From a virus (taxonomy: Duplodnaviria; Heunggongvirae; Uroviricota; Caudoviricetes): a stretch of 64,000 nucleotides of DNA. Both the position numbers and the translations under genes were made by a program. Positions 7,150 through 62,733 of the stretch are shown piece by piece (position 1 is the stretch's first letter; each line of letters begins with the position of its first letter). The stretch is taken from IMG/VR virus record IMGVR_UViG_3300045988_157791. One strand, written 5' to 3'. The notes beneath the pieces are model-generated. The model did no database searches and had not been told where the DNA came from. It saw nothing but the letters and a program-made list of their open reading frames with translations.

Positions 7150-7449
7150 TTACCATTGCCAGCACTCTAGCCCTTCAACGACCGGTGCACCACAATCAAA
7201 ATGTACAGAGTCAAAGCCTACATCAAGTACTTTCTGAATGTTCGCAATCGCGCCCTCGGATATACCATATCGACGCAACTCATCTTTCCAGTCATCGTCC
7301 TGTAACCCGGCGTGGACAATGCAACCGTACTCAATTTGTGAAACCCAATCCAGCTCATTGCTTGCGATCATGAATCGGCGAGCATCTTCCTCTGATGTAT
7401 GAGATGAGCTGATCAATGCCACCTGGTAGGCTTGGGTAATGTTCAACAT
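7150..7449 (-). CDS. hypothetical protein (99 aa)
   Basis: ATG with GGAG SD; motif copy e upstream. Confidence 0.45.
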   Translation of the reverse strand: MLNITQAYQVALISSSHTSEEDARRFMIASNELDWVSQIEYGCIVHAGLQDDDWKDELRRYGISEGAIANIQKVLDVGFDSVHFDCGAPVVEGLECWQW

Positions 7450-7460
7450 TTCAACCACTC

Positions 7461-7525
7461 CAAAACAAGTTGTTTTCTTATGTGGTTTATTATCTCCATC
7501 AACAAAAGGCAGAAAACAAATTGTT
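7461..7525 (-). promoter_or_regulatory. conserved promoter/leader motif (copy e, with a second partial core)
   Basis: AAACAAGTTGTTTTCTTATGTGG plus downstream AAAACAAATTGTTTT. Confidence 0.5.
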
Positions 7526-7565
7526 TTAGGTACTGTGTAAATCAGAAGGGATTGTGTCTATATGA

Positions 7566-7592
7566 AAATGCCCGGCGTGTTGCCGGGCATTG
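7566..7592 (-). terminator. metG rho-independent terminator
   Basis: Hairpin GCCCGGCgtgttGCCGGGC with a U-run on the minus strand, just 3' of the metG stop. Confidence 0.7.
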
Positions 7593-7610
7593 CGAAGAGA
7601 GGTTGTTTAA

Positions 7611-9644
7611 TTACTTAACCTGGTGGCCAGGTTTAGCACCAGCATCCGGGCTTAACAGGAAGATATCTTTCCCGCCGGGGCCAGCAGCCATCACCATGCC
7701 TTCAGAGATACCGAAGCGCATTTTACGTGGTGCCAGGTTAGCCACCATAATGGTGTGACGACCAATCAGTGCCTGCGGATCCGGGTAGGCAGAACGAATA
7801 CCGGAGAAGACATTGCGTTTTTCACCGCCGAGATCCAGTGTCAGGCGCAGCAGTTTGTCAGAACCTTCAACAAACTCTGCGTTTTCGATCAGCGCTACGC
7901 GCAGGTCAACTTTGGCGAAGTCGTCAAAGGTGATGGTTTCCTGAATCGGATCATCTGCCAGTGGGCCAGTAACTGGCGCGGCAGCTGCTTTCACTTCTTC
8001 TTTAGACGCTTCCACCAGTGCTTCAACCTGCTTCATATCGATGCGGTTATACAGTGCCTTGAACGGATTTACTTTATGGCCCAGCAGCGGTTGCTGGATA
8101 CCATCCCAGGTCAGTTCTGTATTCAGGAATGCTTCTGCACGTTCAGTCAGTTTCGGCAGTACCGGCTTCAGGTACGTCATCAGCACGCGGAACAGGTTAA
8201 TGCCCATAGAGCAAATCGCCTGCAGATCGGCATCGCGTCCTTCCTGCTTCGCCACCACCCACGGAGCCTGTTCATCGACATAGCGGTTAGCCAGGTCAGC
8301 CAGTGCCATGATTTCACGGATAGCTTTACCAAATTCGCGGCTTTCCCACGCTTCACCAATCACTTCAGCGGCATCAGTGAAGGTTTTGTACAACTGCGGG
8401 TCAGCCAGCTCGCTTGCCAGCACACCGTCAAAACGCTTATTGATAAAGCCAGCGTTACGGGACGCCAGGTTAACCACTTTGTTCACGATATCGGCATTCA
8501 CACGCTGAACGAAATCCTCCAGGTTGAGATCGATATCATCAATGCGCGAAGAGAGTTTCGCAGTGTAGTAGTAACGCAGGCTGTCAGCGTCAAAATGATT
8601 CAGCCAGGTGCTGGCTTTAATAAAGGTGCCGCGAGACTTGGACATCTTCGCGCCGTTCACCGTCACATAGCCATGAACAAACAGGTTGGTCGGCTTGCGG
8701 AAGTTGCTGCCTTCCAGCATGGCAGGCCAGAACAGGCTGTGGAAGTAAACGATATCTTTACCGATGAAGTGGTACAGCTCGGCGGTGGAGTCTTTCTTCC
8801 AGTATTCATCGAAGCTTACGCTGTCGCCGCGCTTGTCGCACAGATTCTTGAAAGAACCCATGTAGCCAATCGGTGCGTCCAGCCAGACGTAGAAATATTT
8901 GCCCGGCGCGTTCGGAATTTCAAAACCGAAGTAAGGGGCGTCGCGGGAGATATCCCACTGTTGCAGGCCAGATTCAAACCACTCCTGCATTTTATTTGCC
9001 ACCTGCTCCTGCAACGCACCGCTGCGGGTCCATGCCTGCAACATTTCGCTGAAAGAGGGCAGATCAAAGAAGAAGTGTTCAGAATCACGCATTACCGGCG
9101 TAGCACCAGAAACCACCGATTTCGGTTCAATCAGTTCAGTCGGGCTGTAGGTCGCGCCGCAGACTTCACAGTTATCGCCGTATTGATCTGGCGCTTTACA
9201 TTTCGGGCAGGTGCCTTTCACAAAACGGTCCGGCAGGAACATGCCTTTTTCCGGATCGTACAGCTGAGAGATGGTGCGGTTTTTAATAAAACCGTTTTCT
9301 TTCAGGCGAGAGTAGATAAGTTCTGACAACTGGCGGTTCTCTTCGCTGTGCGTCGAGTGATAGTTGTCATAGCTGATGTTAAAGCCTGCGAAATCAGTCT
9401 GATGTTCCTGACTCATTTCGCCAATCATCTGCTCCGGTGTGATACCAAGCTGCTGAGCTTTAAGCATGATCGGCGTGCCGTGGGCATCGTCGGCGCAGAT
9501 GAAGTTGACCTCGTGGCCGCGCATTCGCTGGTAACGGACCCAGACATCAGCCTGGATGTGCTCCAGCATATGGCCGAGGTGGATTGAGCCGTTAGCGTAC
9601 GGCAGCGCGCACGTCACCAGAATTTTCTTCGCGACTTGGGTCAT
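7611..9644 (-). CDS. metG: methionine--tRNA ligase (677 aa)
   Basis: Start at [26 protein letters not shown] (HIGH-type motif), KMSKS present, zinc knuckles CPKC/CEVC, C-terminal tRNA-binding domain; I recognise it as enterobacterial MetG. Confidence 0.95.
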
Positions 9645-24473: not shown

Positions 24474-24893
24474 TTACAACTTCTTAGCGCCCTTAAGTAG
24501 TGCGCTACGTACAAATTGAGCCGCTTTTTTCAAAGTTTCTTCACTGGTTTCACAGACAATCGGATCTTTCCACTTACCTGACACAGTGTTGAGAATATTG
24601 ATTTGGTTGCTATCCAGACAAACAGAGATATAAAGCACCGAGCCACCAGCCAGCATCAAATGCATAGGAAACAGAGGCTTTTTACTGCCTTCACTGAACT
24701 GAGACATGGCGATGTTAATGGCTTCACCCACTTGTGTACCAACAAGCCCCTGCGCAGTTTCGAATATGGCACGAATAGCCAGACGAGCCTCTCGATCGCT
24801 CATAAGCGACCGGGAATGTTCGTCCGCTACACGAATCAAAGCCTCTGTTGTTTTCCGATCCAGTTCATCTTCAAGCAACATTTCACTAAACAT
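24474..24893 (-). CDS. hypothetical protein (139 aa)
   Basis: ORF. Confidence 0.45.
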   Translation of the reverse strand: MFSEMLLEDELDRKTTEALIRVADEHSRSLMSDREARLAIRAIFETAQGLVGTQVGEAINIAMSQFSEGSKKPLFPMHLMLAGGSVLYISVCLDSNQINILNTVSGKWKDPIVCETSEETLKKAAQFVRSALLKGAKKL

Positions 24894-24954
24894 TTTTTAT
24901 CCTTAACCCATTTTGAGAGTTTTATTGTCGCAATGTCGAAGAGGCGAACAATTT

Positions 24955-25599
24955 CTAATGAACGGTCACTCGGCCACAGAACCGGTTTTCTATCTTTTCT
25001 ACAGCGTTATCTAGCATTCTCATCACTGATCTGGCTCTTGCTTCAACCGTGCGATATCGGTTGGAAACGACGAAGGTTTGCAGATCTCCCCTTTGCGGAT
25101 GCAGGTGAATTTTTGTCAGTTCCCCGCACATCAACGCATCAATACGAGCGACATACAGACGGTCTAATGATGCTCGTTGTGATCGCAAGTAATCTCGCTC
25201 TGAGAGAGCGACTCCCGGGCGTAAGCCAGCAATGGCGTTAAAGTTTGAAATAGCAGTTTTGTGGCAAAACTTTTCGATATCGAGGGCTAACTCAATACAC
25301 CGATCTTCATTTGTATGGCCGACCAAATCCAACGTGTAGGCCATAACATCAGCAGGTGTGCGATCGATAACAAAGCCTTCAACACCACGCGTAAGTAGCT
25401 CTATATGCTTTGCTATTTCCATTTGAATCTGAAGCCGCTCATATAGAGGCATAGAATCACCTACTCGAACACCGAGGCGGCTCATCAAACTTCCGACACC
25501 AGCATCCACGTAAGGGATTCCGTAATGTTTGTCGATATATTTAGCCAGGGTTGTTTTCCCACTGCCCTGAGCACCAGTGATCCCAATCCGGTAATCCAT
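24955..25599 (-). CDS. P-loop NTPase, putative nucleoside/nucleotide kinase
   Basis: Walker A GITGAQGSGKTT at the N-terminus; located in the nucleotide-metabolism block. Confidence 0.5.
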   Translation of the reverse strand: MDYRIGITGAQGSGKTTLAKYIDKHYGIPYVDAGVGSLMSRLGVRVGDSMPLYERLQIQMEIAKHIELLTRGVEGFVIDRTPADVMAYTLDLVGHTNEDRCIELALDIEKFCHKTAISNFNAIAGLRPGVALSERDYLRSQRASLDRLYVARIDALMCGELTKIHLHPQRGDLQTFVVSNRYRTVEARARSVMRMLDNAVEKIENRFCGRVTVH

Positions 25600-26075
25600 T
25601 ACGACCTTCTGTATACGATCTGCGAAAAGCCAGGCTCTTCCTCGCTGGCTCGTTGGGTATAAGCTGTTTCAACAGGCACAAAGCCTAAATTACGCATCAT
25701 GCTTGCCGGGAAGAATGCATCGGCGTTTGGCACATCAACGCCGATGTGGGAGAGCCAAATCTCTTCAACATGCGGCATGAATAGCGAGTAAATTTGTTCC
25801 CCGCCAATCACCCACACAGGCTCTGGTAATCGCAACACATCATCCACACCAGCAGGGTAGAATCCATTTGGTACAAAGCCATGAGAGCGCGTCAAAACGA
25901 GGTTATGACGCTCTGGAAGAGGGCGTTTGAGACTTTCCATCGTTTTACGCCCCATAACGACAGTGGCGTTTTTGGTGAGTCTCTTAAATAGCTTCAGATC
26001 GGTAGAACAACGCCAGGGGAGTTCATTCGCTATGCCGATCTCATAGTTACGGCCAACAGCAGCGATCATCTTCAT
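25599..26075 (-). CDS. dihydrofolate reductase
   Basis: MIAAVGRNYEIGIANELPW, VMGRKTMESL, VIGGEQIY align to E. coli FolA as I recall it. Confidence 0.8.
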   Translation of the reverse strand: MKMIAAVGRNYEIGIANELPWRCSTDLKLFKRLTKNATVVMGRKTMESLKRPLPERHNLVLTRSHGFVPNGFYPAGVDDVLRLPEPVWVIGGEQIYSLFMPHVEEIWLSHIGVDVPNADAFFPASMMRNLGFVPVETAYTQRASEEEPGFSQIVYRRS

Positions 26076-26485
26076 TTGCTCACCTCATAGATGACCGGTC
26101 GATGGTGAGAGTCGGCTAAAGCGGCACGGAGTCGAGGATCGTGCACCAGCGCAGCGATAAGCAGATCGCCTTTATGCTCCGCTAATGTGCGCTTAATATG
26201 CTTCTCATAACTGGTGCCATTCGGTACGAGATGAAGCCAGTCATAATCAACGCCAAAATCTTTCAGCCATCGTTTAGTTGGCGCTTCAAGAGTTTCAGAG
26301 CGGCTACTGATAAGCACCACTTCAGCCCCTGAGCGAGCAAAACCACGCAACATACGGCTGGTGGGGAAAATGAGTTCATCACCGGCAATGAGCTGGCCTG
26401 CATCCGCGTCAGATACTGATTTACGATGGCTGGCATTTGCCAGCACACCTTCAATTTCGCATAAGACATACATACCTCTTGCCAT
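26072..26485 (-). CDS. hypothetical protein, weak HAD-like pattern
   Basis: Start placed at MARGMYVL; a DxDG-like position reads EIEG, so catalytic competence is doubtful. Confidence 0.3.
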   Translation of the reverse strand: MARGMYVLCEIEGVLANASHRKSVSDADAGQLIAGDELIFPTSRMLRGFARSGAEVVLISSRSETLEAPTKRWLKDFGVDYDWLHLVPNGTSYEKHIKRTLAEHKGDLLIAALVHDPRLRAALADSHHRPVIYEVSK

Positions 26486-26486
26486 A

Positions 26487-27590
26487 TCACACCGCCACTG
26501 GAACCTTGATCCACGATAGAGGGTCATAGCCAAGAATTAAAACCTCGTCCCATTTGAAATCATCCAACTCTGACCATTCATGAGGGAAAATAACGACCGG
26601 ATCTGAATGCTCTGGAGCCTGTCGTTTCATTAGCTCACACACACCTTCCATGTGGTTGTTGTACAAATGCACGTCAAAGCCAAAATGCACAAATGCACCG
26701 GCCATGTGACCCGTAATCTTCGCGAGAAAATGAGTGAGAATGCCATAGCCAGCAATATTGAATGGCATACCAACAAAAGTGTCTACGCTACGCTGTACGA
26801 GGCAGGAGTTGAGGATGCGTTTGGGGATTCCAAGTTCATCCAGTTCAGCTTCAGTAACACTGCCGTCCATCTCCAGATCGTATAGCATCTTGGTGTAGAT
26901 AGACTCGTAACCGAGGCGACTGTGTTGAAGACCAATGTCAGTTGCCATCGTTAAACGGGTTTCAAAATCCAGCTCACGACTCCACAAAGAGAAGACAAAG
27001 TGGCAAGGTGGCAGTTTCATATCCTCAAGCTCGCCTACGTTCCATGCGTTAAGCATGATGCGACGATCGGTAGGGTTCGTGCGCAGTGTATCGACAATAC
27101 GCTGTAGCTGATCGATTTCACGGGACAGCACTACGCGATCTTCACTGATACCCAGGTATCCCTCGACTTTGTACCCGCGTTCACGGAAAGTAGCGATCTT
27201 GCTCAGATATTCACTATGGCTCACGATGCGGGTATCTTCCCATCGACGCCACTGCTTACCGTAAACCGGCCCCAAATCGCCATTCTCATCGGCCCATGCA
27301 TCCCAAATCTTAACGCCGTTATCCTTGAGAAATTGGATGTTGCCCGTGCCTTTCAGATACCACTCAAGTTCGACAAGCAGTGGCTTAAGATTTACCGCCT
27401 TTCCAGAAATAAGCGGCACAGTCCCACCAGTAAGCATGTAGTAAGAGGGAACGTAGCAGGTGCTTAAAGTACCAGTGCCTGTGCGATCATCAGCCTGCAC
27501 GCCGCTTTTAAGCACCGTCTCAATAACTTTTGCATACGATGCGTTTGTTACCTGACCGTTCGTATGCTCACGATTCAAAAGGAGTGACAC
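26487..27590 (-). CDS. thymidylate synthase family enzyme with two large insertions (start uncertain, probably GTG)
   Basis: DRTGTGT, WADENGDLGPVYGKQWR, AWNVGELEDMKLPPCHF (catalytic Cys), QRSVDTFVGMPFNIAGY, GYDP..IK.PVAV; about 100 residues more than E. coli ThyA. Confidence 0.8.
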   Translation of the reverse strand: MSLLLNREHTNGQVTNASYAKVIETVLKSGVQADDRTGTGTLSTCYVPSYYMLTGGTVPLISGKAVNLKPLLVELEWYLKGTGNIQFLKDNGVKIWDAWADENGDLGPVYGKQWRRWEDTRIVSHSEYLSKIATFRERGYKVEGYLGISEDRVVLSREIDQLQRIVDTLRTNPTDRRIMLNAWNVGELEDMKLPPCHFVFSLWSRELDFETRLTMATDIGLQHSRLGYESIYTKMLYDLEMDGSVTEAELDELGIPKRILNSCLVQRSVDTFVGMPFNIAGYGILTHFLAKITGHMAGAFVHFGFDVHLYNNHMEGVCELMKRQAPEHSDPVVIFPHEWSELDDFKWDEVLILGYDPLSWIKVPVAV

Positions 27591-27761
27591 AAAAACCTCA
27601 CAAAGATAAGTAACCACTTATTCATTGCGTGAGTTTACATTTATTGAGAGAACAAGACCAGATAGATAAAAAAATGGTGGCCATAGGCCACCAAAAACGA
27701 ATAGTTGTTTCAGAAATTTAACGCGCCAACGCAATATACACAGATAGATAACTACCTACAA

Positions 27762-28631
27762 TTATTTTTTGATCATTCCGTACATTGCTGAGGCTTTAGC
27801 TTGCTCAACAAAGGAGGATAAATCGACATCACTATAGGTTGGAGACTTCAGAATCTTTCCATCGGAAATTCGAAAACCGATCATCTTATCGGTGCCATCA
27901 GCATGGCGGAATCCCAGATCTGAAGAGTCGTATTTGCAGTTGGCCACAGCCTGGCGACGTTCCTCAACATCAGCAGGCCATAATTTTGTCATGTTAGACC
28001 GATGAATTTCGCCAACCAGCTCGACTACATTGATACCGAGGAAATCAGCCAGTCGATAGGTCATCATGCACGCCACATAGATTTTGTTCATGACACGGCG
28101 CAGTTCCTGAATCAGCTCAGAATCCTTAACAGTCTTGTTCTCAAGTTTATCTGCCAGCTCTTCGAGCATACATGACGCCTCACGAGCTTCCTGAAATGGC
28201 ATTGCCATATCATCGAAAACAGTGTTACCGGGCACAAAAATTGTCTGCATAAAGCGATCAATGCTCTGTTCCTGCGTGTAATAGGTCATGCCGGTAGAAA
28301 TACCACCTTTGATGGCGACCATCGTACCAACACCAACGTATAAAAAGTCGGCCATTGCATCCAGCAGTTGCTCAATATCCCCATTCATTGCGGCTGGAAT
28401 ACCTTCCACTACAGCTTCTTCATGAATCAGGCTTGCACGGAGACGAAGCAGCTCTGGTGTCGGCATAACGCGTCTCGGATGCTGGAAGAGTTCATGAAAC
28501 TGATCGACCATCTTGTAAATACTTTCAGTAGCTACACCATGACCTTCATGCAACTCATATGGTTCTGGCTTAAATCCAATGAGTCGATCGGTGGCAAGTT
28601 TCAGGTGGTCAGTCAGTTTGGTAAAGTTCAT
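27762..28631 (-). CDS. hypothetical protein (289 aa)
   Basis: ORF in the nucleotide-metabolism block. Confidence 0.45.
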   Translation of the reverse strand: MNFTKLTDHLKLATDRLIGFKPEPYELHEGHGVATESIYKMVDQFHELFQHPRRVMPTPELLRLRASLIHEEAVVEGIPAAMNGDIEQLLDAMADFLYVGVGTMVAIKGGISTGMTYYTQEQSIDRFMQTIFVPGNTVFDDMAMPFQEAREASCMLEELADKLENKTVKDSELIQELRRVMNKIYVACMMTYRLADFLGINVVELVGEIHRSNMTKLWPADVEERRQAVANCKYDSSDLGFRHADGTDKMIGFRISDGKILKSPTYSDVDLSSFVEQAKASAMYGMIKK

Positions 28632-28708
28632 GCTAGTTTTGTTCCTTCTTAATTCTTGTGATCCATTGTGGCCCAGCGTTGCCAGGCCACATAATGCTTT
28701 GTATCGGT

Positions 28709-29851
28709 TTACAGGTCAGCAAACTGGCTTAGAGAAGCCTTATCCACGGTAGAATCGATCTGACCTACCAGATATGTGCTTTGCTCTGCCTCTTGTGGTG
28801 CAATTTGCAGTGTGTCGGTTAACAACCACTTGTTCATCCAGACCAGCGGATCGGTGGTAACCTCTGGAAATAAAGCCTTCAGGCCAAGACGATTCATAGC
28901 CAGATTGGTGCGGTATTTTACATAGGTTTTGAGAATATCCGCGTTTAAACCAATCATCGAACCGTCTTTGAAGAGATAGTCTGCCCAGTTCATTTCTTGT
29001 TCGGCGACTGATTTCATGGTGTCGTAAATGACGTTTTCTTCATCAGCAGCAATCTCTTTCCACAATAAACCTTCGCGACCGGTACGCATGAAGCGGATCA
29101 TGCGTTCAGTTCCTTCGCAATGCAGAGCTTCATCACGGGCAATAAAGCGCATAATTTTGGTGTTACCCTCAAGCAACTTCCGTTCGCCAAAGGCAAACGT
29201 ACATGCAAAACTTACATAGAAACGGATCGCCTCAAGCGCATTAATGGACACCAACGTGCGGAAAAGCTGACGGTGCAAAGGGTATGGCTCCCAGCCATAT
29301 TCATTTACGTACAGACGTTCAAACTCCTTCTCACCTAACGACTGGCGCTCGCAGGTCATCCCATAAAGCCTGTCATATTCAGCAGAGATACTGATCGCTC
29401 GGTTGATGATTTCTTCATCCGTAACAATACCGTCAAAAACAATGCTCGGATCGTCCACCATGCCACGAATAATGTGGGTGTAGCTGCGGCTATGGATAGT
29501 CTCAGAGAAAGACCATGTTTCAACCCACGTTTCCAGTTCAGGAATAGAGATAAGCGGCAGCAGCGTTGCATTTGGGCTACGTCCCTGAACTGAATCGAGT
29601 AACGTTTGATAACGGAGATTGCTCAGAAAAATGTGACGTTCGTGGTCCCGCAGCTTCGTGTTGAAGTCGATACGATCGCTCGAAATATCAACTTCTTCCG
29701 GCCGCCAGAAGAAAGACAATTGACGTTCAATCAACTTTTCAAAATCACGGTATTTTTGCTGATCGTAACGTGCCACGTTGACAGATTGTCCGAGGAACAT
29801 AGGCTCTTTGGTTGCATCATTAGCACCCAAACGGAACGTTGAATATGACAT
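28709..29851 (-). CDS. nrdB: ribonucleotide reductase class Ia beta subunit
   Basis: Near-collinear with E. coli NrdB as I recall it ([66 protein letters not shown]). Confidence 0.9.
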
Positions 29852-29957: not shown

Positions 29958-32273
29958 TCAGATTTTGCAGGCTCCGTCGCACTCATCTTCTGGCTCGACG
30001 GCTACAGCTTGCGTCAGTGGATTCTGCGGTTCGTCGTCATCACGCTTTCCTGCCCCATCTCTGGTGTTGTGGTAGTAAAGCGTTTTAACTCCCATCTTGT
30101 AGGCGAGAAGCAAATCTGACAGTAGCGTCATCATTGGGACTTTATCGCCTTCAAAGCGAGAAGGGTCATAGTTGGTATTGGCTGAAATAGCCTGGTCAAA
30201 GAACTTCTGGATGATCGCCACCTTTGTCAGATAGCCGCGGTTGTCCGGCATATCCCACAGGTATTCATACTGTTCCTTCAGTTTTTCAAACTCAGGCACG
30301 ACCATCTTAACGATGCCGTCCTTAGAAGATTTCACCGACACCGGTCCACGAGGCGGTTCGATGCCGTTGGTGGAATTAGTGATCTGGCTGGAAGTCTCGC
30401 ATGGCATTTGTGCCGTCAGTGTGGAGTTGCGAAGTCCGTATTTTGCAATACGTTCACGCAGTTCTTCCCACGGCATCTTTAACTCAAAGTTGGTTTCGCC
30501 ACTTTCGTCTAATGAAGAACGGTAATGGTCGATCGGCAACTGACCAATTGCGTACTTGGTCTGCTCAAACCAGTCACACTCACCTTTTGCTTCAGCAAGT
30601 CGGCAGCTGGCATCAAGAAGGTAATACTGGATAGCTTCGAACGTTTCATGCACCAGTTTATTGCCAGCGGTATCAGAATAACGAACGCCATTCTTTGCCA
30701 GGTAATAAGCAAAGTTGGTTACACCAATTCCCAAGCTACGACGAGCTTTGGCAGGCACTTCGGCTGCCTCCATCGGATAGTCTTGATAATCCAGTAACGA
30801 ATCCAGTGCAGCAACGGCATAGAACGCCACCTCTTTAAGAGACTCCAGTGAACGGATGGCTCCGAGGTTAAAAGCGGATAAAGTGCATAGCGCGATCTCA
30901 CCGTTCGGGTCGTCGGTAAATGCCAGTGGACGAGTGGGTAGAGTGATCTCCATGCACAGGTTTGACTGGCGAACAGGTGCAAGAGCAGGAATGAAAGCGC
31001 CATGCTCGTTAATATGATCGACGTTCGCAATATAAATTCGGCCCGTGGACGCTCGTTCCTGCATCAGAGATGAGAACAGCTCAATGGCAGGTACTGACTT
31101 CTTGCGAATTGAATCATCGGCTTCGTATTTATGGTACAGCTTTTCAAACAGCTCCTGGTCTGTGAAGAAGGCTTCGTACATATCAGGCACATCATGCGGG
31201 CTGAACAGAGTGATGTTCTCGCTTCTGACGAGTCGACGGTACATTAGACGGTTACTCATGACGCCGTAATCAAGATGGCGAACGCGGTTTTCATCAATAC
31301 CACGGTTATTTTTCACCACCAGCAGACTTTCAACTTCAAGATGCCAGATCGGGTAAAACGCTGTTGCTGCGCCACCACGAACACCACCTTGCGAACAAGA
31401 TTTAACAGCCGTCTGGAAATGCTTCAGGAATGGAATAACTCCAGTATGGGTGGCTTCACCATTGCGGATCTCGCTGCCCAGCGCACGGATACGGCCAAAA
31501 CCAATACCAATTCCAGCACGACGTGAAACGTAGTCGATAATTGCGGCTGAAGCTGCACTAATCCCTTTCAGACTATCGCCAGACTCAATCAGCACACAAC
31601 TGGAGAACTGACGGGTTGGAGTACGGACGCCGGCCATGATTGGTGTGGGCAGAGACAGTTTGAACGTACTTGTAACGTCATAGAAACCTTTGACCATCTC
31701 CATACGTGTTTTGCCAGCGCAGTCGTCTTCCCAATTCTGGAACAGACACATGCCTACCAGCATATAGATATGTTGCGGCCCCTCATGAATCTCACCAGTA
31801 ACACGGTTTTGAACGAGGTATTTGCTTTGCAACTGCACCGTAGCTGCATAGCCAAAAAGATCGTCACGTTTCGGCTTAATGTAATTGCCGAGTTCTTCGA
31901 TCTCTTCAAACGAATAATGTGTCAGCAAATCCTTGTCATAAACGCCCTTGTTAACGTTCTTGACAATGTGTTGGTAGAAGTTCGGATAGTCGTAACGACC
32001 GAAGGCATCTTTGCGGATTTTAAAAATGTTCAGGCGGGCAGCCACCTGTGAGTAATTTGGTGCTTCTGGTGAGATCAAATCAGCGGCAGATTTAACCAAA
32101 GCCTCATGCAACTGGCTGGTGGTAATCCCATCAAAAATGCTGGCCGCAGCTCCCATTGCTACAGCGGATGCGCTTACACCACGAATGCCTTCTACGCCAT
32201 ACATTACGACGCGGTTGTATTTTTCTTCGGATAACGGCTCTGTTTGGCCGTTACGTTTTACGATGCTTATCAT
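29958..32273 (-). CDS. nrdA: ribonucleotide reductase class Ia alpha subunit
   Basis: Collinear with E. coli NrdA as I recall it (QNRVTGEI, PTPIM.GVRTPTRQFSSCVLIE, NLC.EI.LPT, C-terminal CxxC tail). Confidence 0.92.
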   Translation of the reverse strand: MISIVKRNGQTEPLSEEKYNRVVMYGVEGIRGVSASAVAMGAAASIFDGITTSQLHEALVKSAADLISPEAPNYSQVAARLNIFKIRKDAFGRYDYPNFYQHIVKNVNKGVYDKDLLTHYSFEEIEELGNYIKPKRDDLFGYAATVQLQSKYLVQNRVTGEIHEGPQHIYMLVGMCLFQNWEDDCAGKTRMEMVKGFYDVTSTFKLSLPTPIMAGVRTPTRQFSSCVLIESGDSLKGISAASAAIIDYVSRRAGIGIGFGRIRALGSEIRNGEATHTGVIPFLKHFQTAVKSCSQGGVRGGAATAFYPIWHLEVESLLVVKNNRGIDENRVRHLDYGVMSNRLMYRRLVRSENITLFSPHDVPDMYEAFFTDQELFEKLYHKYEADDSIRKKSVPAIELFSSLMQERASTGRIYIANVDHINEHGAFIPALAPVRQSNLCMEITLPTRPLAFTDDPNGEIALCTLSAFNLGAIRSLESLKEVAFYAVAALDSLLDYQDYPMEAAEVPAKARRSLGIGVTNFAYYLAKNGVRYSDTAGNKLVHETFEAIQYYLLDASCRLAEAKGECDWFEQTKYAIGQLPIDHYRSSLDESGETNFELKMPWEELRERIAKYGLRNSTLTAQMPCETSSQITNSTNGIEPPRGPVSVKSSKDGIVKMVVPEFEKLKEQYEYLWDMPDNRGYLTKVAIIQKFFDQAISANTNYDPSRFEGDKVPMMTLLSDLLLAYKMGVKTLYYHNTRDGAGKRDDDEPQNPLTQAVAVEPEDECDGACKI

Positions 32274-42815: not shown

Positions 42816-43889
42816 TTACTCTTCTACTGACTCGGTGGGGTTGTCTTTTGCTCTTCGGTCGTCGATTGCCTGCAAAGCCGCAATGATTTCAGCCAGTGGC
42901 TTCTCCCGATACATCTCAACGATCTGCGATTTGGTGTATTTCTTGTCACCAATTTCAACTCGCCCGCTGGCGTTCTTTGGCAGGTATCCTTCTTCCAGCA
43001 TGTACTCGACGAGCGATTCGATAACGTCGAGGCCACGAGTAGGATCGAAGTAGAATTTCCAGGTGCATTTGCCATACGGTGGTGCAACTTTGTTTTTGAT
43101 GCATTCTGCGCCTACGTCCTGGCCGATCTTCTCTTTACCATCCTTCATCACCGATGCACCAAGACGGATACGTACAGAAGCGTAGAACTTCGGTGAATCT
43201 CCACCTGGCGACGTAGTAGGGTCGCCAAACATTACACCGATTTTTGTGCGAACCTGATTCAAGAAGATGATGCAGGCGTTGTATTTGCGTGCCCACAAAG
43301 CCAGAGTAGGGAAGTTCGCACTCGTCGCACGAGCCAGTGCCGTATTGTCGTTCATGTTTAGCTGATCTTTGTCTTTGGCAGTGCCTTCAGCCATCTTTTC
43401 GAACTTCTCGGCTTTGGAGTTCGGAACCATAGACGCAAGAGAGTCAGCCACGATACAGATAGGTGCTGATTCGGGGATAAGCTCTTCATCACGAACCAAT
43501 TTAAGTATTGTGCCGATCAACTCTACAGAGTCTTCGAAGGTATCTGGCTGCTTGTATACCCACTGACCGTCATCCTCATCTGCGTTCAGGCCATTGGCTA
43601 CAGCCAGGCCAACGTCAAAACTGTTTTCATGATCGAGGAATACCGCCAGACCATCTTGTTTTTGAGCGGAGATCATCGCTGCTGTTGCAAGGAACGTTTT
43701 CCCTGCACTTGGAGGACCGAATACTTCGACGATACGACCACATGGGAAGCCGCCATCGTAACGACCAGAAATAGCTTTGTTTAACGGTGGAAAGCCTGTA
43801 TCAATCCAATGAGTTACTTTCTGAATTTCGTCGTTGCTACCGATTTTCTTTTTCAGAGCAAGTGCCAGTGCGGATTTTCCTTTTGCCAT
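42816..43889 (-). CDS. RecA/UvsX-like recombinase
   Basis: Walker A GRIVEVFGPPSAGKTFLA in a RecA-like N-terminal context. Confidence 0.7.
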   Translation of the reverse strand: MAKGKSALALALKKKIGSNDEIQKVTHWIDTGFPPLNKAISGRYDGGFPCGRIVEVFGPPSAGKTFLATAAMISAQKQDGLAVFLDHENSFDVGLAVANGLNADEDDGQWVYKQPDTFEDSVELIGTILKLVRDEELIPESAPICIVADSLASMVPNSKAEKFEKMAEGTAKDKDQLNMNDNTALARATSANFPTLALWARKYNACIIFLNQVRTKIGVMFGDPTTSPGGDSPKFYASVRIRLGASVMKDGKEKIGQDVGAECIKNKVAPPYGKCTWKFYFDPTRGLDVIESLVEYMLEEGYLPKNASGRVEIGDKKYTKSQIVEMYREKPLAEIIAALQAIDDRRAKDNPTESVEE

Positions 43890-59593: not shown

Positions 59594-60502
59594 ATGATTG
59601 GTAAGTTGTCTGATTCTTTGATTGAAAATAAATACAACGAATTTAGAGAAGAAATATCTTTACTTTTTGACTATTTAAATCAGATAAATGATACAACAAA
59701 GAAAAATATAAAACGTCTTCTTAAAGAAGTGGAGTATGCACAGAATCCAGATACTATTATTAATATTAATGAAACTATTAAGATTAAGTGTGGCACAACA
59801 TTAGCTCGCCATTTATGTTCAAACCCATATACAGGTTCAACATTAGAGATAGGTAACAGCGCCATTGATTTAGAAGAAAAGATAAGATTGTGTAATACTT
59901 TGAAAAATAAACAATATCAGTGGGTTATTACTGAAGCCTATGAGTTACTGGAAGACTATATTGAGGCAATATATGTCTATACTGTATGTGTTCGAAATGA
60001 TTTATGGTCCTCAAGTGATTTTGGTAAGGTTGAAGATGATGAAATTGGGAAAAGGGAAGTTTATTACAGATTATTAAAAGCAAAAAGTAACCCATCGAAA
60101 AAAATAACTAAAATTTTCAGAAATAAAATACCTGGCTTCAAAGAGATAGAAACAAACAACAAGATTGGCAAAAACTATCGCTTTAACATCAAGCTAATTG
60201 AACTACTAAGACATACAATAGTACATAATGGTGGACGATTCAACAACACAGAAAAATTTATAACTAAGGTCTTGGATGAATCTGAAATAAGCGGAAAAAA
60301 AAGAGTTATTGGAGAAAGAGTTGTTAGAAACTACATTGCTAAAGTACAAGAAGATGATATTGTAATGCTATTAGAAAGACCATCAGAAATTTTAGGTTCT
60401 TTTGGTTGGCATTTCAATAGAGCAAAATATTTACTAAGTGATATTTTAGAATACTCACTAATCATTAAAGAAGAACTAATATCATATCTAGATAATTATT
60501 AA
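59594..60502 (+). CDS. AT-rich hypothetical protein with an R-x4-H (HEPN-like) motif; possible abortive-infection protein
   Basis: About 30% GC gene in a 48-50% GC backbone; motif ELLRHTIVHNGG. Confidence 0.4.
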   Translation: MIGKLSDSLIENKYNEFREEISLLFDYLNQINDTTKKNIKRLLKEVEYAQNPDTIININETIKIKCGTTLARHLCSNPYTGSTLEIGNSAIDLEEKIRLCNTLKNKQYQWVITEAYELLEDYIEAIYVYTVCVRNDLWSSSDFGKVEDDEIGKREVYYRLLKAKSNPSKKITKIFRNKIPGFKEIETNNKIGKNYRFNIKLIELLRHTIVHNGGRFNNTEKFITKVLDESEISGKKRVIGERVVRNYIAKVQEDDIVMLLERPSEILGSFGWHFNRAKYLLSDILEYSLIIKEELISYLDNY

Positions 60503-60921
60503 TTAAAAGGGCAGAAGCTCCTTTGGTTATTGCGTTGGAAACTATATCATTACAATAATAAACGATGTTTTCAACGCATAAAACATCAGTGAATAAATTG
60601 ATGCTTGCTGTAACGATGGTACGCTACGTAATATCCGAGATTTATGAGGCTGATTACAGATAAGGACTTACATAGCACACAAAAACGTTGCGACTTATAA
60701 GAATATCTGCTGATATCAGACGCAACGTATGTTTTATATCAAATTATTACTTTATAGTAATAAACAATATTAAGTTGAAAAGCCATCATCAGCGGCAACC
60801 TTATTATGAACTTCAGCTAAATACTCAGCTGCCGCTATTTGTTGCTCTGCAAAAGAAGCGCCATGAGCTTCCATTGAACCAGCATAAAGCATTAGAGAAT
60901 GATGTAAATCTTTATTAAGCA

Positions 60922-61611
60922 TTATACGAGATAACACAATACTGGCACACCATTGCGTTCGGCTAATTTATTAACGCTGTAAAGAAACTCAACGACTTTG
61001 TCCTTATTCCCTGCCCACGATGGCAGCCGACCATTTCCAGAGGCGACATCCTTCGCTGAATGAATCTTATTCGCATGATGCATTCTGGTTTTAGCCTTAA
61101 TGTATCCCTGAAAGAACAGAAAGGCGATATACGCAATAATTGATATGCCTTTTGTTGGCCACGCAAAAAACAAAGCAGGAAAAAAGAGAAGAGTAGTTAT
61201 CATACCAATTTTTAGTGAAAGTTGAGCAATAATAAAAAGTATAAGCGCAATCCCGAGAGTCCACATAGTGAAAGGTACACCTTCAGTCTCTCCATTCAAG
61301 ATATACACACTATCGTCCATAGCTGCAAGGTGAACATATAAGAACACAACAGGGGTGATAAATGTTCGCACCTCTTTAAATCGTGTAATCATCTTGGCAA
61401 TCCAGTAAGCTAAAAGAACACTGGCAAATGACTCTGCAAGGATTTCGGCAACTATCGTGGATGTAACTTCAATAAAAATAAACGACAAGAGAAGATACAG
61501 GGTAATACAGTATCCAAAGTATATTGATTTATTGAATAGAATTTTCTTCACAAAAATTCCTGGTGAAAGAATCATTAATCGAAAATTATATAACAATCTA
61601 ATAACCTCCAA
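60922..61611 (-). CDS. multi-pass membrane protein (AT-rich)
   Basis: Several hydrophobic helices; low GC. Confidence 0.5.
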   Translation of the reverse strand: MEVIRLLYNFRLMILSPGIFVKKILFNKSIYFGYCITLYLLLSFIFIEVTSTIVAEILAESFASVLLAYWIAKMITRFKEVRTFITPVVFLYVHLAAMDDSVYILNGETEGVPFTMWTLGIALILFIIAQLSLKIGMITTLLFFPALFFAWPTKGISIIAYIAFLFFQGYIKAKTRMHHANKIHSAKDVASGNGRLPSWAGNKDKVVEFLYSVNKLAERNGVPVLCYLV

Positions 61612-61833
61612 ATTGTATCAACACAGTACGCTTCACCTCGCTGCTAGGCTGCAACTAGGAATAATCTCATTGTAAATCAAATGTAAAAATCCTTAAAGAT
61701 TCTTTTTAATTTGATTAAAATATGTCCTTGATAAACGGAAATTTCCTATACCTAAATGGAACACACTATATGCACGGATTAGTAATTGTAAGAAAATAAA
61801 CAATAATCAATGATGTTTTCATAAGGAAAGAAT

Positions 61834-62733
61834 ATGAACAAGGCCAGAAACCACCATTACCTTTCTCAATGCTATTTAAGAGGATTTACGAAAAATGGAG
61901 GGGTTAAATCAAATATAATAGCTTTTGATTTGAAGAAAAAAACAACTTTTGAGGCAAAGCCTCGAAATGTTGGCGGTATAAGAGATTTTAACAGAATAGA
62001 TATTGAGGGAGTCGATCAAAATATCCTTGAAAGTACATTGGCAAATTTCGAGGGTAATGTTGCAACTGAACTTAAAAACTTAAAACAGGGTATGCCTTTC
62101 TCTGGTCAAACTAAGGATATAATCCTTTCTTTCATTTCGTTACTGGCCGTCAGAACACCAGCTATGCGTGATCACATGGAATCACAAATAGTTAAAATGG
62201 TAGATATGGTCGCGAAAATGACAGCTTCAGATGAAGACAGATACAACGATACTATTCGAGAAGCTGCTTTTACTGTTGATGTATCATTTGAAAAGATAAA
62301 AAACTTTATTGGAGGCAGTCAATACTCTATTTCTGTCAAGCGTGAGTTTCTTATCGCTGCTGAAATGAAAATATCTCGAGCCATTGACAATGCACTTCAT
62401 TGTCGCGACTGGCGTCTCTTCCGTTCTACAGAAGAATCAGGAACTTTCATAACTTCAGATAATCCAGTAGGTCTGATGTGGACAGATGAAAGTGACGGAT
62501 CACCTGGTTTTTTGGTTGAAAATACATGTGTTCTTTTCCCTATATCCAAAGATATTATTTTGTTTGGAGACTACGGTGGTAGAACTGGTGAACATTATGC
62601 GAACAAAAATATAGCTTCACATTTTAATGCATGTGTCATTTCTAATGCAGTAGAAAGAGTATTTTCTGCAGATCGAACATTTAATTACATTAACGTAGAT
62701 GGTGTAATTAAGCAGGGAAATAACCTCGTGTAA
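61834..62733 (+). CDS. DUF4238-like protein (candidate single-gene antiphage protein)
   Basis: N-terminal HHYLSQCYLRGF resembles the HHY..Q.YL+.F signature I recall for DUF4238; low GC. Confidence 0.5.
   Translation: MNKARNHHYLSQCYLRGFTKNGGVKSNIIAFDLKKKTTFEAKPRNVGGIRDFNRIDIEGVDQNILESTLANFEGNVATELKNLKQGMPFSGQTKDIILSFISLLAVRTPAMRDHMESQIVKMVDMVAKMTASDEDRYNDTIREAAFTVDVSFEKIKNFIGGSQYSISVKREFLIAAEMKISRAIDNALHCRDWRLFRSTEESGTFITSDNPVGLMWTDESDGSPGFLVENTCVLFPISKDIILFGDYGGRTGEHYANKNIASHFNACVISNAVERVFSADRTFNYINVDGVIKQGNNLV

Follow-up and report, generated by a model that had tools for sequence, protein, structure and literature searches.

The window, a 64,000-nt stretch of viral DNA, encodes a homologue of thymidylate synthase (TS) that is about 100 residues longer than Escherichia coli ThyA. 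The question raised by this locus is which nucleotide such an enzyme would make, either ordinary dTMP or a hydroxymethylated pyrimidine destined for hypermodified DNA. The evidence points to the former: the gene very probably encodes a functional, canonical ThyA-type TS of an SSU5-like phage-plasmid, placed in a dTTP-supply module and bearing inherited, selectively maintained insertions.

A ThyA-type gene on an SSU5-like phage-plasmid

The TS coding sequence occupies 26487..27590 of the minus strand and specifies 367 amino acids from a GTG start, as supported by the open reading frame, by Pfam and phmmer matches and by cluster identity. The longest frame at the locus spans 26487..27617; the GTG at 27590 is the supported start because a GAGG ribosome-binding site, read from the sequence at 27596..27599 (minus strand), stands 5-6 nt 5' of it. 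The same length of 367 residues is found in the annotation of Escherichia phage Cyrano, in database cluster P0001 (1101 member sequences), to which the window protein is 100% identical, and in PGAP calls on RefSeq E. coli plasmids, where the identical gene is labeled 'thymidylate synthase'. Start codons differ among orthologues, with GTG used in the window (27588-27590) and in Cyrano, TTG in Salmonella phage SSU5 (L005 4001) and in a Klebsiella phage (L006 4001), and ATG in none of the orthologues examined.

The Pfam search returned PF00303 as the sole domain (E=7.6e-78, 261.8 bits against a cutoff of 24.3), with the match broken into two stretches, and the ThyX domain PF02511 was absent. A flavin-dependent ThyX identity was therefore rejected, and the public label 'ThyX Thymidylate synthase' carried by the Cyrano gene (record OV696614, CDS CYRAN_72, equivalent to window 26487-27590) is a misnomer. 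With the exception of that label, the gene is already correctly annotated in hundreds of public records.

A phmmer search against the PDB aligned E. coli ThyA to the protein in three blocks and left two query segments unaligned. By global alignment, 118 identities are distributed across all 264 E. coli positions (45%), and the window protein exceeds ThyA by 103 residues. In E. coli numbering, these comprise 15 residues at the N terminus (27546..27590, minus strand, from the pairwise alignment), 1 at ~55, 34 after ~104, 51 net at A155-K158 and 2 near 225. The sequence-only reading had described a TS homologue with an intact core and about 100 extra residues in two insertions. The core is as described, with DRTGTGT at residues 35-41, PPCH containing Cys196 (codon at 27003-27005, minus strand) and QRSVDTFVGMPFNIA at 266-280. 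The total of extra residues is also close to that estimate, but the insertions themselves account for only 85 of the 103, the rest being the 15 N-terminal residues and 3 in small indels.

Over the TS gene the window shares 99.6% identity with Cyrano and about 78% with SSU5, which identifies it as a piece of an SSU5-like phage-plasmid. An identical or near-identical TS gene was found in 204 of 5,426 complete E. coli genomes, and 206 of the 208 places at which it occurs are plasmids of about 107-115 kb.

Residues that set the chemistry are those of ThyA

To read the chemistry from the sequence, we compared the protein with E. coli ThyA (PDB 2TSC and 1TYS; EC 2.1.1.45) at catalytic, substrate and folate positions, among them three diagnostic ones taken from PMC13326640 and PMC8670742 (N177, L143 and D169 in E. 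coli numbering). Asn at position 177 directs the enzyme to dUMP and Asp to dCMP (PMC8670742; PMC13326640). A bulky hydrophobic residue at L143 keeps water out, hydroxymethylases having Asp or Glu there, and position 169 is Asn in 5-hydroxy-dCMP synthases (PMC13326640). The window protein has the ThyA residue at 20 of the 20 positions checked. The three discriminators are N278 (=N177, in the PFNIA motif), L193 (=L143) and D270 (=D169). The catalytic set is Cys196 in its P-C-H motif, H197 (=H147), E74 (=E58) and Y110 (=Y94), and the set contacting the phosphate and ribose of dUMP is R36, R176, R177, R267, S268, H308 and Y310 (=R21, R126', R127', R166, S167, H207 and Y209). Folate binding and solvent exclusion are represented by I95, W96, W99, L193, D270 and F277 (=I79, W80, W83, L143, D169 and F176). 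The C terminus is PVAV, a closing tail as in ThyA, and the L172 equivalent is Val, a conservative change. In the 62-sequence family alignment 41 columns are invariant, and these include C196, R36, R176/R177, R267, D270, N278, H308 and Y310.

The comparators for hydroxymethylase activity were SPO1 gp29 (dUMP), M6 gp58 (a TS homologue from a phage with a 5-hmdU-derived modification) and T4 gp42 (dCMP; PDB 1B5E), the T4 sequence used being identical to PDB 1B49. These proteins share with the window TS the superfamily fold, the catalytic Cys, E58, R166/S167, H207 and Y209. They differ from it in having Asp at L143 and Asn or Thr at H147, where the window protein has Leu and His, and in lacking the W80/W83 pair, F176 and the ThyA tail, although T4 gp42 keeps W80 alone. 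T4 gp42 in addition has Asp at N177, where the window TS has Asn. Overall identity of the phage hydroxymethylases to the window TS is about 20% (21% over a partial alignment for M6 gp58). SPO1 gp29 (383 aa) and M6 gp58 (351 aa) are also long, but their extra length is a C-terminal extension of ~100 residues in place of internal insertions. The NCBIfam thymidylate-synthase equivalog TIGR03284 separates the two kinds of protein at its cutoff of 108.35 bits, with the window TS passing at 217.2 bits and SPO1 gp29 falling below at 58 bits.

Two internal insertions are predicted to fold and are shared with other phage enzymes

Insertion 1 (~34 aa, residues ~121-154; 27129..27230, minus strand) lies between E. 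coli ThyA positions ~104 and 105. Insertion 2 (residues ~205-259; 26814..26978, minus strand) places 55 aa where E. coli ThyA has the 4-residue hairpin tip A155-K158, a net gain of 51. E. coli ThyA lacks both, as well as the 15-residue N-terminal extension. An AlphaFold2 model built from the 62-sequence alignment had a pLDDT of 95 and a pTM of 0.93, with the insertions also very confident and the first 10 residues at a pLDDT of 72. In a Foldseek comparison, the model matched E. coli ThyA with a TM-score of 0.94 normalized to the target and 0.68 normalized to the query. Insertion 1 is predicted to form beta-strands and two short helices, and insertion 2 three helices (residues 209-225, 231-242 and 247-253) following the strand of the catalytic Cys. 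The net charge of insertion 2 is about -7 by direct count, and such strong acidity is evidence against nucleic-acid binding. The strands flanking the hairpin that insertion 2 replaces bear dimer-interface residues in human and E. coli TS, and, judged from established TS structures, insertion 2 is probably located on the rim of that interface. No solved structure spanning insertion 2 was found, and a literature search returned no published description of the TS insertions. Insertion 2 is a widespread, structurally uncharacterized addition to an enzyme fold that is among the best studied.

The two insertions are not a chance pattern, because the same sites are occupied in dozens of homologues. 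Insertion 1 aligns without gaps to Burkholderia thailandensis TS (PDB 3V8H; NCBIfam PRK13821/NF010393 type). That enzyme is only 28% identical to the window TS overall. Because the NF010393 profile matches the window TS in two stretches on either side of insertion 2, the B. thailandensis type has no counterpart of that segment; the window TS scores far under the NF010393 family cutoff. Insertion 2 is present in all SSU5-like homologues, which come from Salmonella, Klebsiella, Enterobacter, Raoultella, Morganella, Providencia and Xenorhabdus elements of ~100-120 kb, and also in jumbo phages, examples being SPN3US, Erwinia phages Machina and Wellington, and Cronobacter CR5. Distant copies retain the anchors (S/T)xE..ER at the start and LD..(I/V)PxR.L at the end. 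The jumbo-phage enzymes (SPN3US, Machina, Wellington and CR5-like) have both sites filled, carry the insertion-2 anchor motifs and are 37-40% identical to the window TS over 95-98% of its length. The TS of Pseudomonas 201phi2-1 was one of the two best matches in a library of viral structures (TMq 0.83-0.85), and the PHROG 160 profile gave one unbroken match to the window TS across the insertions. Jumbo-phage TSs differ in the lengths and sequences of their insertions (15-35% identity within them; the 201phi2-1 TS has 457 aa) and reside in lytic jumbo phages, whereas the window TS belongs to a temperate phage-plasmid. By alignment, then, insertion 1 is common to PRK13821-type bacterial ThyA and insertion 2 to jumbo-phage TSs.

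Against distant homologues, the insertions are 15-35% identical and the core 42-49%. When the window, SSU5 and the Klebsiella phage-plasmid were compared, pN within the insertions was 0.035-0.24 and pS was 0.59-0.99, the two being given in place of dN/dS as synonymous sites were saturated. By this measure, both insertions are under purifying selection. A neighbor-joining tree of the core columns recovered the SSU5-like clade, with the other insertion-bearing TSs interspersed among 264-aa ThyAs. Searched alone with phmmer against 1.84 billion representatives, insertion 2 (63 aa), a short and divergent query, gave 3 matches, one of which was its own cluster.

Homologue P0002 is 94% identical to the window TS in the core and 54% in insertion 1 (27129-27230), where it resembles P0005; this gives the TS gene a mosaic look and suggests intragenic recombination or unusually rapid change within insertion 1. 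P0019, a 505-aa protein from a 2.4-kb contig, matches 73% of the query at 76% identity and has ~140 more residues in its C-terminal half, a surplus that may reflect duplication, fusion or faulty assembly. The distant insertion-bearing homologue P0042 is encoded among small phage-type ORFs, next to thymidylate kinase and ribonucleotide reductase (RNR) genes.

The gene lies among genes with a probable role in deoxynucleotide supply

On the same minus strand, the TS gene is preceded by genes for the alpha (29958-32273) and beta (28709-29851) subunits of class Ia RNR, called from the ORFs and from how the collinear loci of Cyrano, SSU5 and the Klebsiella phage are annotated, and by a gene for a MazG-like nucleotide pyrophosphohydrolase of 289 aa (27762..28631; PF01503, phrog_671). 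Downstream of TS, a gene for a HAD-fold, PNKP-phosphatase-like protein of 137 aa (26072..26485) begins 1 nt past the stop codon and overlaps by 4 nt a dihydrofolate reductase (DHFR) gene of 158 codons (25599..26075; PF00186 at 1.6e-34), which in turn overlaps by 1 nt a gene for a P-loop NMP-kinase-like protein of 214 aa (24955..25599; AAA_28 at 1.4e-9). Cyrano, SSU5 and Klebsiella phage ST13-OXA48phi12.3 share this gene order.

In the interval separating the MazG-like and TS genes, a consensus scan placed a GC-rich terminator-like hairpin with a trailing T-run (27675..27693, minus strand), the only convincing one in the region. A sigma-70 scan detected no minus-strand promoter ahead of TS; its two consensus matches in the region were fewer than in shuffles. 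An Rfam scan of 24500-29000 returned no family, riboswitches included.

The MazG-like protein also matches DR2231 weakly. DR2231 is a dUTP-preferring MazG; this similarity would fit a role in dUMP supply, and the protein is a candidate supplier of dUMP by dUTP hydrolysis. The P-loop protein gave a weak PHROG match to thymidylate kinase, together with weak adenylate- and cytidylate-kinase matches, and is by sequence a candidate dNMP/dTMP kinase. A separate assignment of this neighbor as a 5-hmdU DNA kinase was rejected, as only the Walker A motif matched M6 5-HMUDK (gp54).

A true TS needs a DHFR downstream because it oxidizes folate, a requirement that a hydroxymethylase does not have. T4 has DHFR and TS as well as a hydroxymethylase, and the linkage is for that reason not decisive by itself. 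The orthologous reductases of SSU5 (dfrA51; AFL47010.1) and the Klebsiella phage (dfrA50; QBP27508.1) confer trimethoprim resistance on expression and are therefore active (PMC12217456).

The HAD-like protein, a member of PHROG 5387 with no function assigned, appears to depart from its own superfamily. HAD phosphatases usually have a DxDGT nucleophile motif. In its place the window protein (26072-26485) has E-I-E-G/D-V, by a tentative alignment to the DxD positions, and E10 and E12 are invariant among the orthologues from the window, SSU5 and the Klebsiella phage. The protein may thus be a HAD variant with Glu in place of Asp, or else a pseudo-phosphatase.

Alternative functions and the preferred assignment

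A dUMP hydroxymethylase at this locus would supply 5-hmdUMP, which would take the place of thymidine and undergo further hypermodification in the DNA of the element. In favor of such an enzyme, the element is phage-derived, and its TS-family protein is unusually long and flanked by MazG-like, HAD-like and P-loop kinase-like proteins. By analogy, these pyrophosphohydrolase, phosphatase and kinase neighbors may count against the ThyA assignment, as the same classes are used by thymine-replacing phages. The residues argue otherwise, because the signature of a dUMP hydroxymethylase (acidic L143 and loss of H147, W80, W83 and the tail) was not found in the window TS, which has L193, H197, W96, W99 and PVAV and also keeps F176. 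At the diagnostic position L143 (PMC13326640) it has Leu, opposed to Asp in all three comparators. Also against it are the low, partial match to M6 gp58, the failure of SPO1 gp29 at the equivalog cutoff that the window TS passes, the DHFR within the operon, active by its orthologues (PMC12217456), and the persistence of the element in plasmid form in 204 complete E. coli genomes. The annotation of Cyrano 30000-108379, a region that spans the whole window and contains many hypothetical proteins, lists no hypermodification gene, be it for a glycosylase-fold pyrophosphorylase (aGPT-Pplase), a PLP or radical-SAM enzyme or a glycosyltransferase, and a literature search returned no report of modification of SSU5 DNA. 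We consider a dUMP hydroxymethylase highly improbable. Phage TS homologues that methylate or hydroxymethylate dCMP, or that make 5-hydroxy-dCMP, also exist. By the criteria of PMC8670742 and PMC13326640, neither the dCMP hydroxymethylase signature (Asp at N177, acidic residue at L143) nor that of the 5-hydroxy-dCMP synthases of the RB69 gp48 and DLP3 gp80 type (D169N with N177D) was found in the window TS, where Asn278, Leu193 and Asp270 occupy these positions, and a dCMP-acting enzyme is close to inconceivable here. The sequence-only reading had offered, from the length of the protein, a pyrimidine hydroxymethylase feeding base hypermodification and, more conservatively, an insertion-bearing ThyA. 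The first proposal finds no support, the specificity residues being those of canonical ThyA at every tested position, and the extra length gives no tie to the SPO1 and M6 enzymes because their surplus is C-terminal. It is the conservative version that is borne out, both by these residues and by the equivalog score.

Loss of activity is no better a description of the protein. An inactive TS-like pseudoenzyme with a structural or regulatory role has nothing specific in its favor beyond the large insertions near the catalytic strand, and with every catalytic residue conserved family-wide (41 invariant columns in 62 sequences) it is very hard to credit. A different proposal keeps the ThyA activity and gives the insertions a second role; insertion 2, for example, might dock DHFR, RNR or the kinase in a dNTP-synthesizing complex, or alter dimer stability or regulation. 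Insertion 2 is kept with conserved anchor motifs in SSU5-like elements and jumbo phages, is confidently predicted as a folded unit, is by the pN and pS values under purifying selection and would emerge between two strands with dimer-interface residues in the human and E. coli enzymes. Its sequence nevertheless diverges much faster than the core, the core phylogeny is compatible with one origin of the insertions or with several, and they could be neutral decoration. We therefore regard a second role as unlikely; were it true, insertion 2 would be a functional add-on specific to phage TSs, more than neutral decoration.

The canonical ThyA assignment draws on the sequence and its residue identities, on the superposition of the model, on gene order and on the activity of orthologous DHFRs. 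From these we infer that the enzyme is active and coupled into a pathway, as well as whatever role the insertions have. As a ThyA, the enzyme would convert dUMP and 5,10-methylene-tetrahydrofolate to dTMP and dihydrofolate by Michael addition of Cys196 and hydride transfer from the cofactor. The dihydrofolate would be reduced again by the DHFR, whose gene is the second one downstream. With RNR, the MazG-like pyrophosphohydrolase and the P-loop kinase-like protein, TS and DHFR would form a module raising canonical dTTP for replication of the element, and both internal insertions would be surface elaborations of the ThyA fold that leave the chemistry unchanged. Ordinary thymidylate would then be expected in the element, giving no reason to anticipate restriction-resistant or sequencing-refractory DNA in SSU5-like phage-plasmids, and the gene would have little importance past its correct annotation. 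The TS-DHFR operon is also the setting in which dfrA50 and dfrA51, trimethoprim-resistance genes named recently, natively occur.

Other features of the element

Several features elsewhere in the window and in Cyrano were noted in passing. A full-length methionyl-tRNA synthetase is annotated at Cyrano 90996-93029, corresponding by collinearity alone to approximately 7200-9200 of the window, and the Cyrano annotation also lists CobT/CobS-like genes, a DNA polymerase III alpha subunit and a HicAB toxin-antitoxin pair. The synthetase, the CobT/CobS-like genes and their companions are unusual cargo for a temperate element. The G+C content of the window falls to 33.5% at 60001-62000, compared with about 45% elsewhere, near a tRNA-Asn/Thr/Ser cluster placed by collinearity with Cyrano.

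The RecA/UvsX-like recombinase of Cyrano (L004 25066-27405) is annotated at 779 aa and has an intein-like insertion in Walker A (GPPSAGK|C...SHN|TFLATAAM). The window copy (42816-43889, minus strand) is uninterrupted at 357 aa (GPPSAGKTFLATAAM). From these two sequences, the difference is a presence/absence polymorphism of a putative intein between otherwise near-identical phage-plasmids, and it offsets window-to-Cyrano coordinates upstream of the recombinase.
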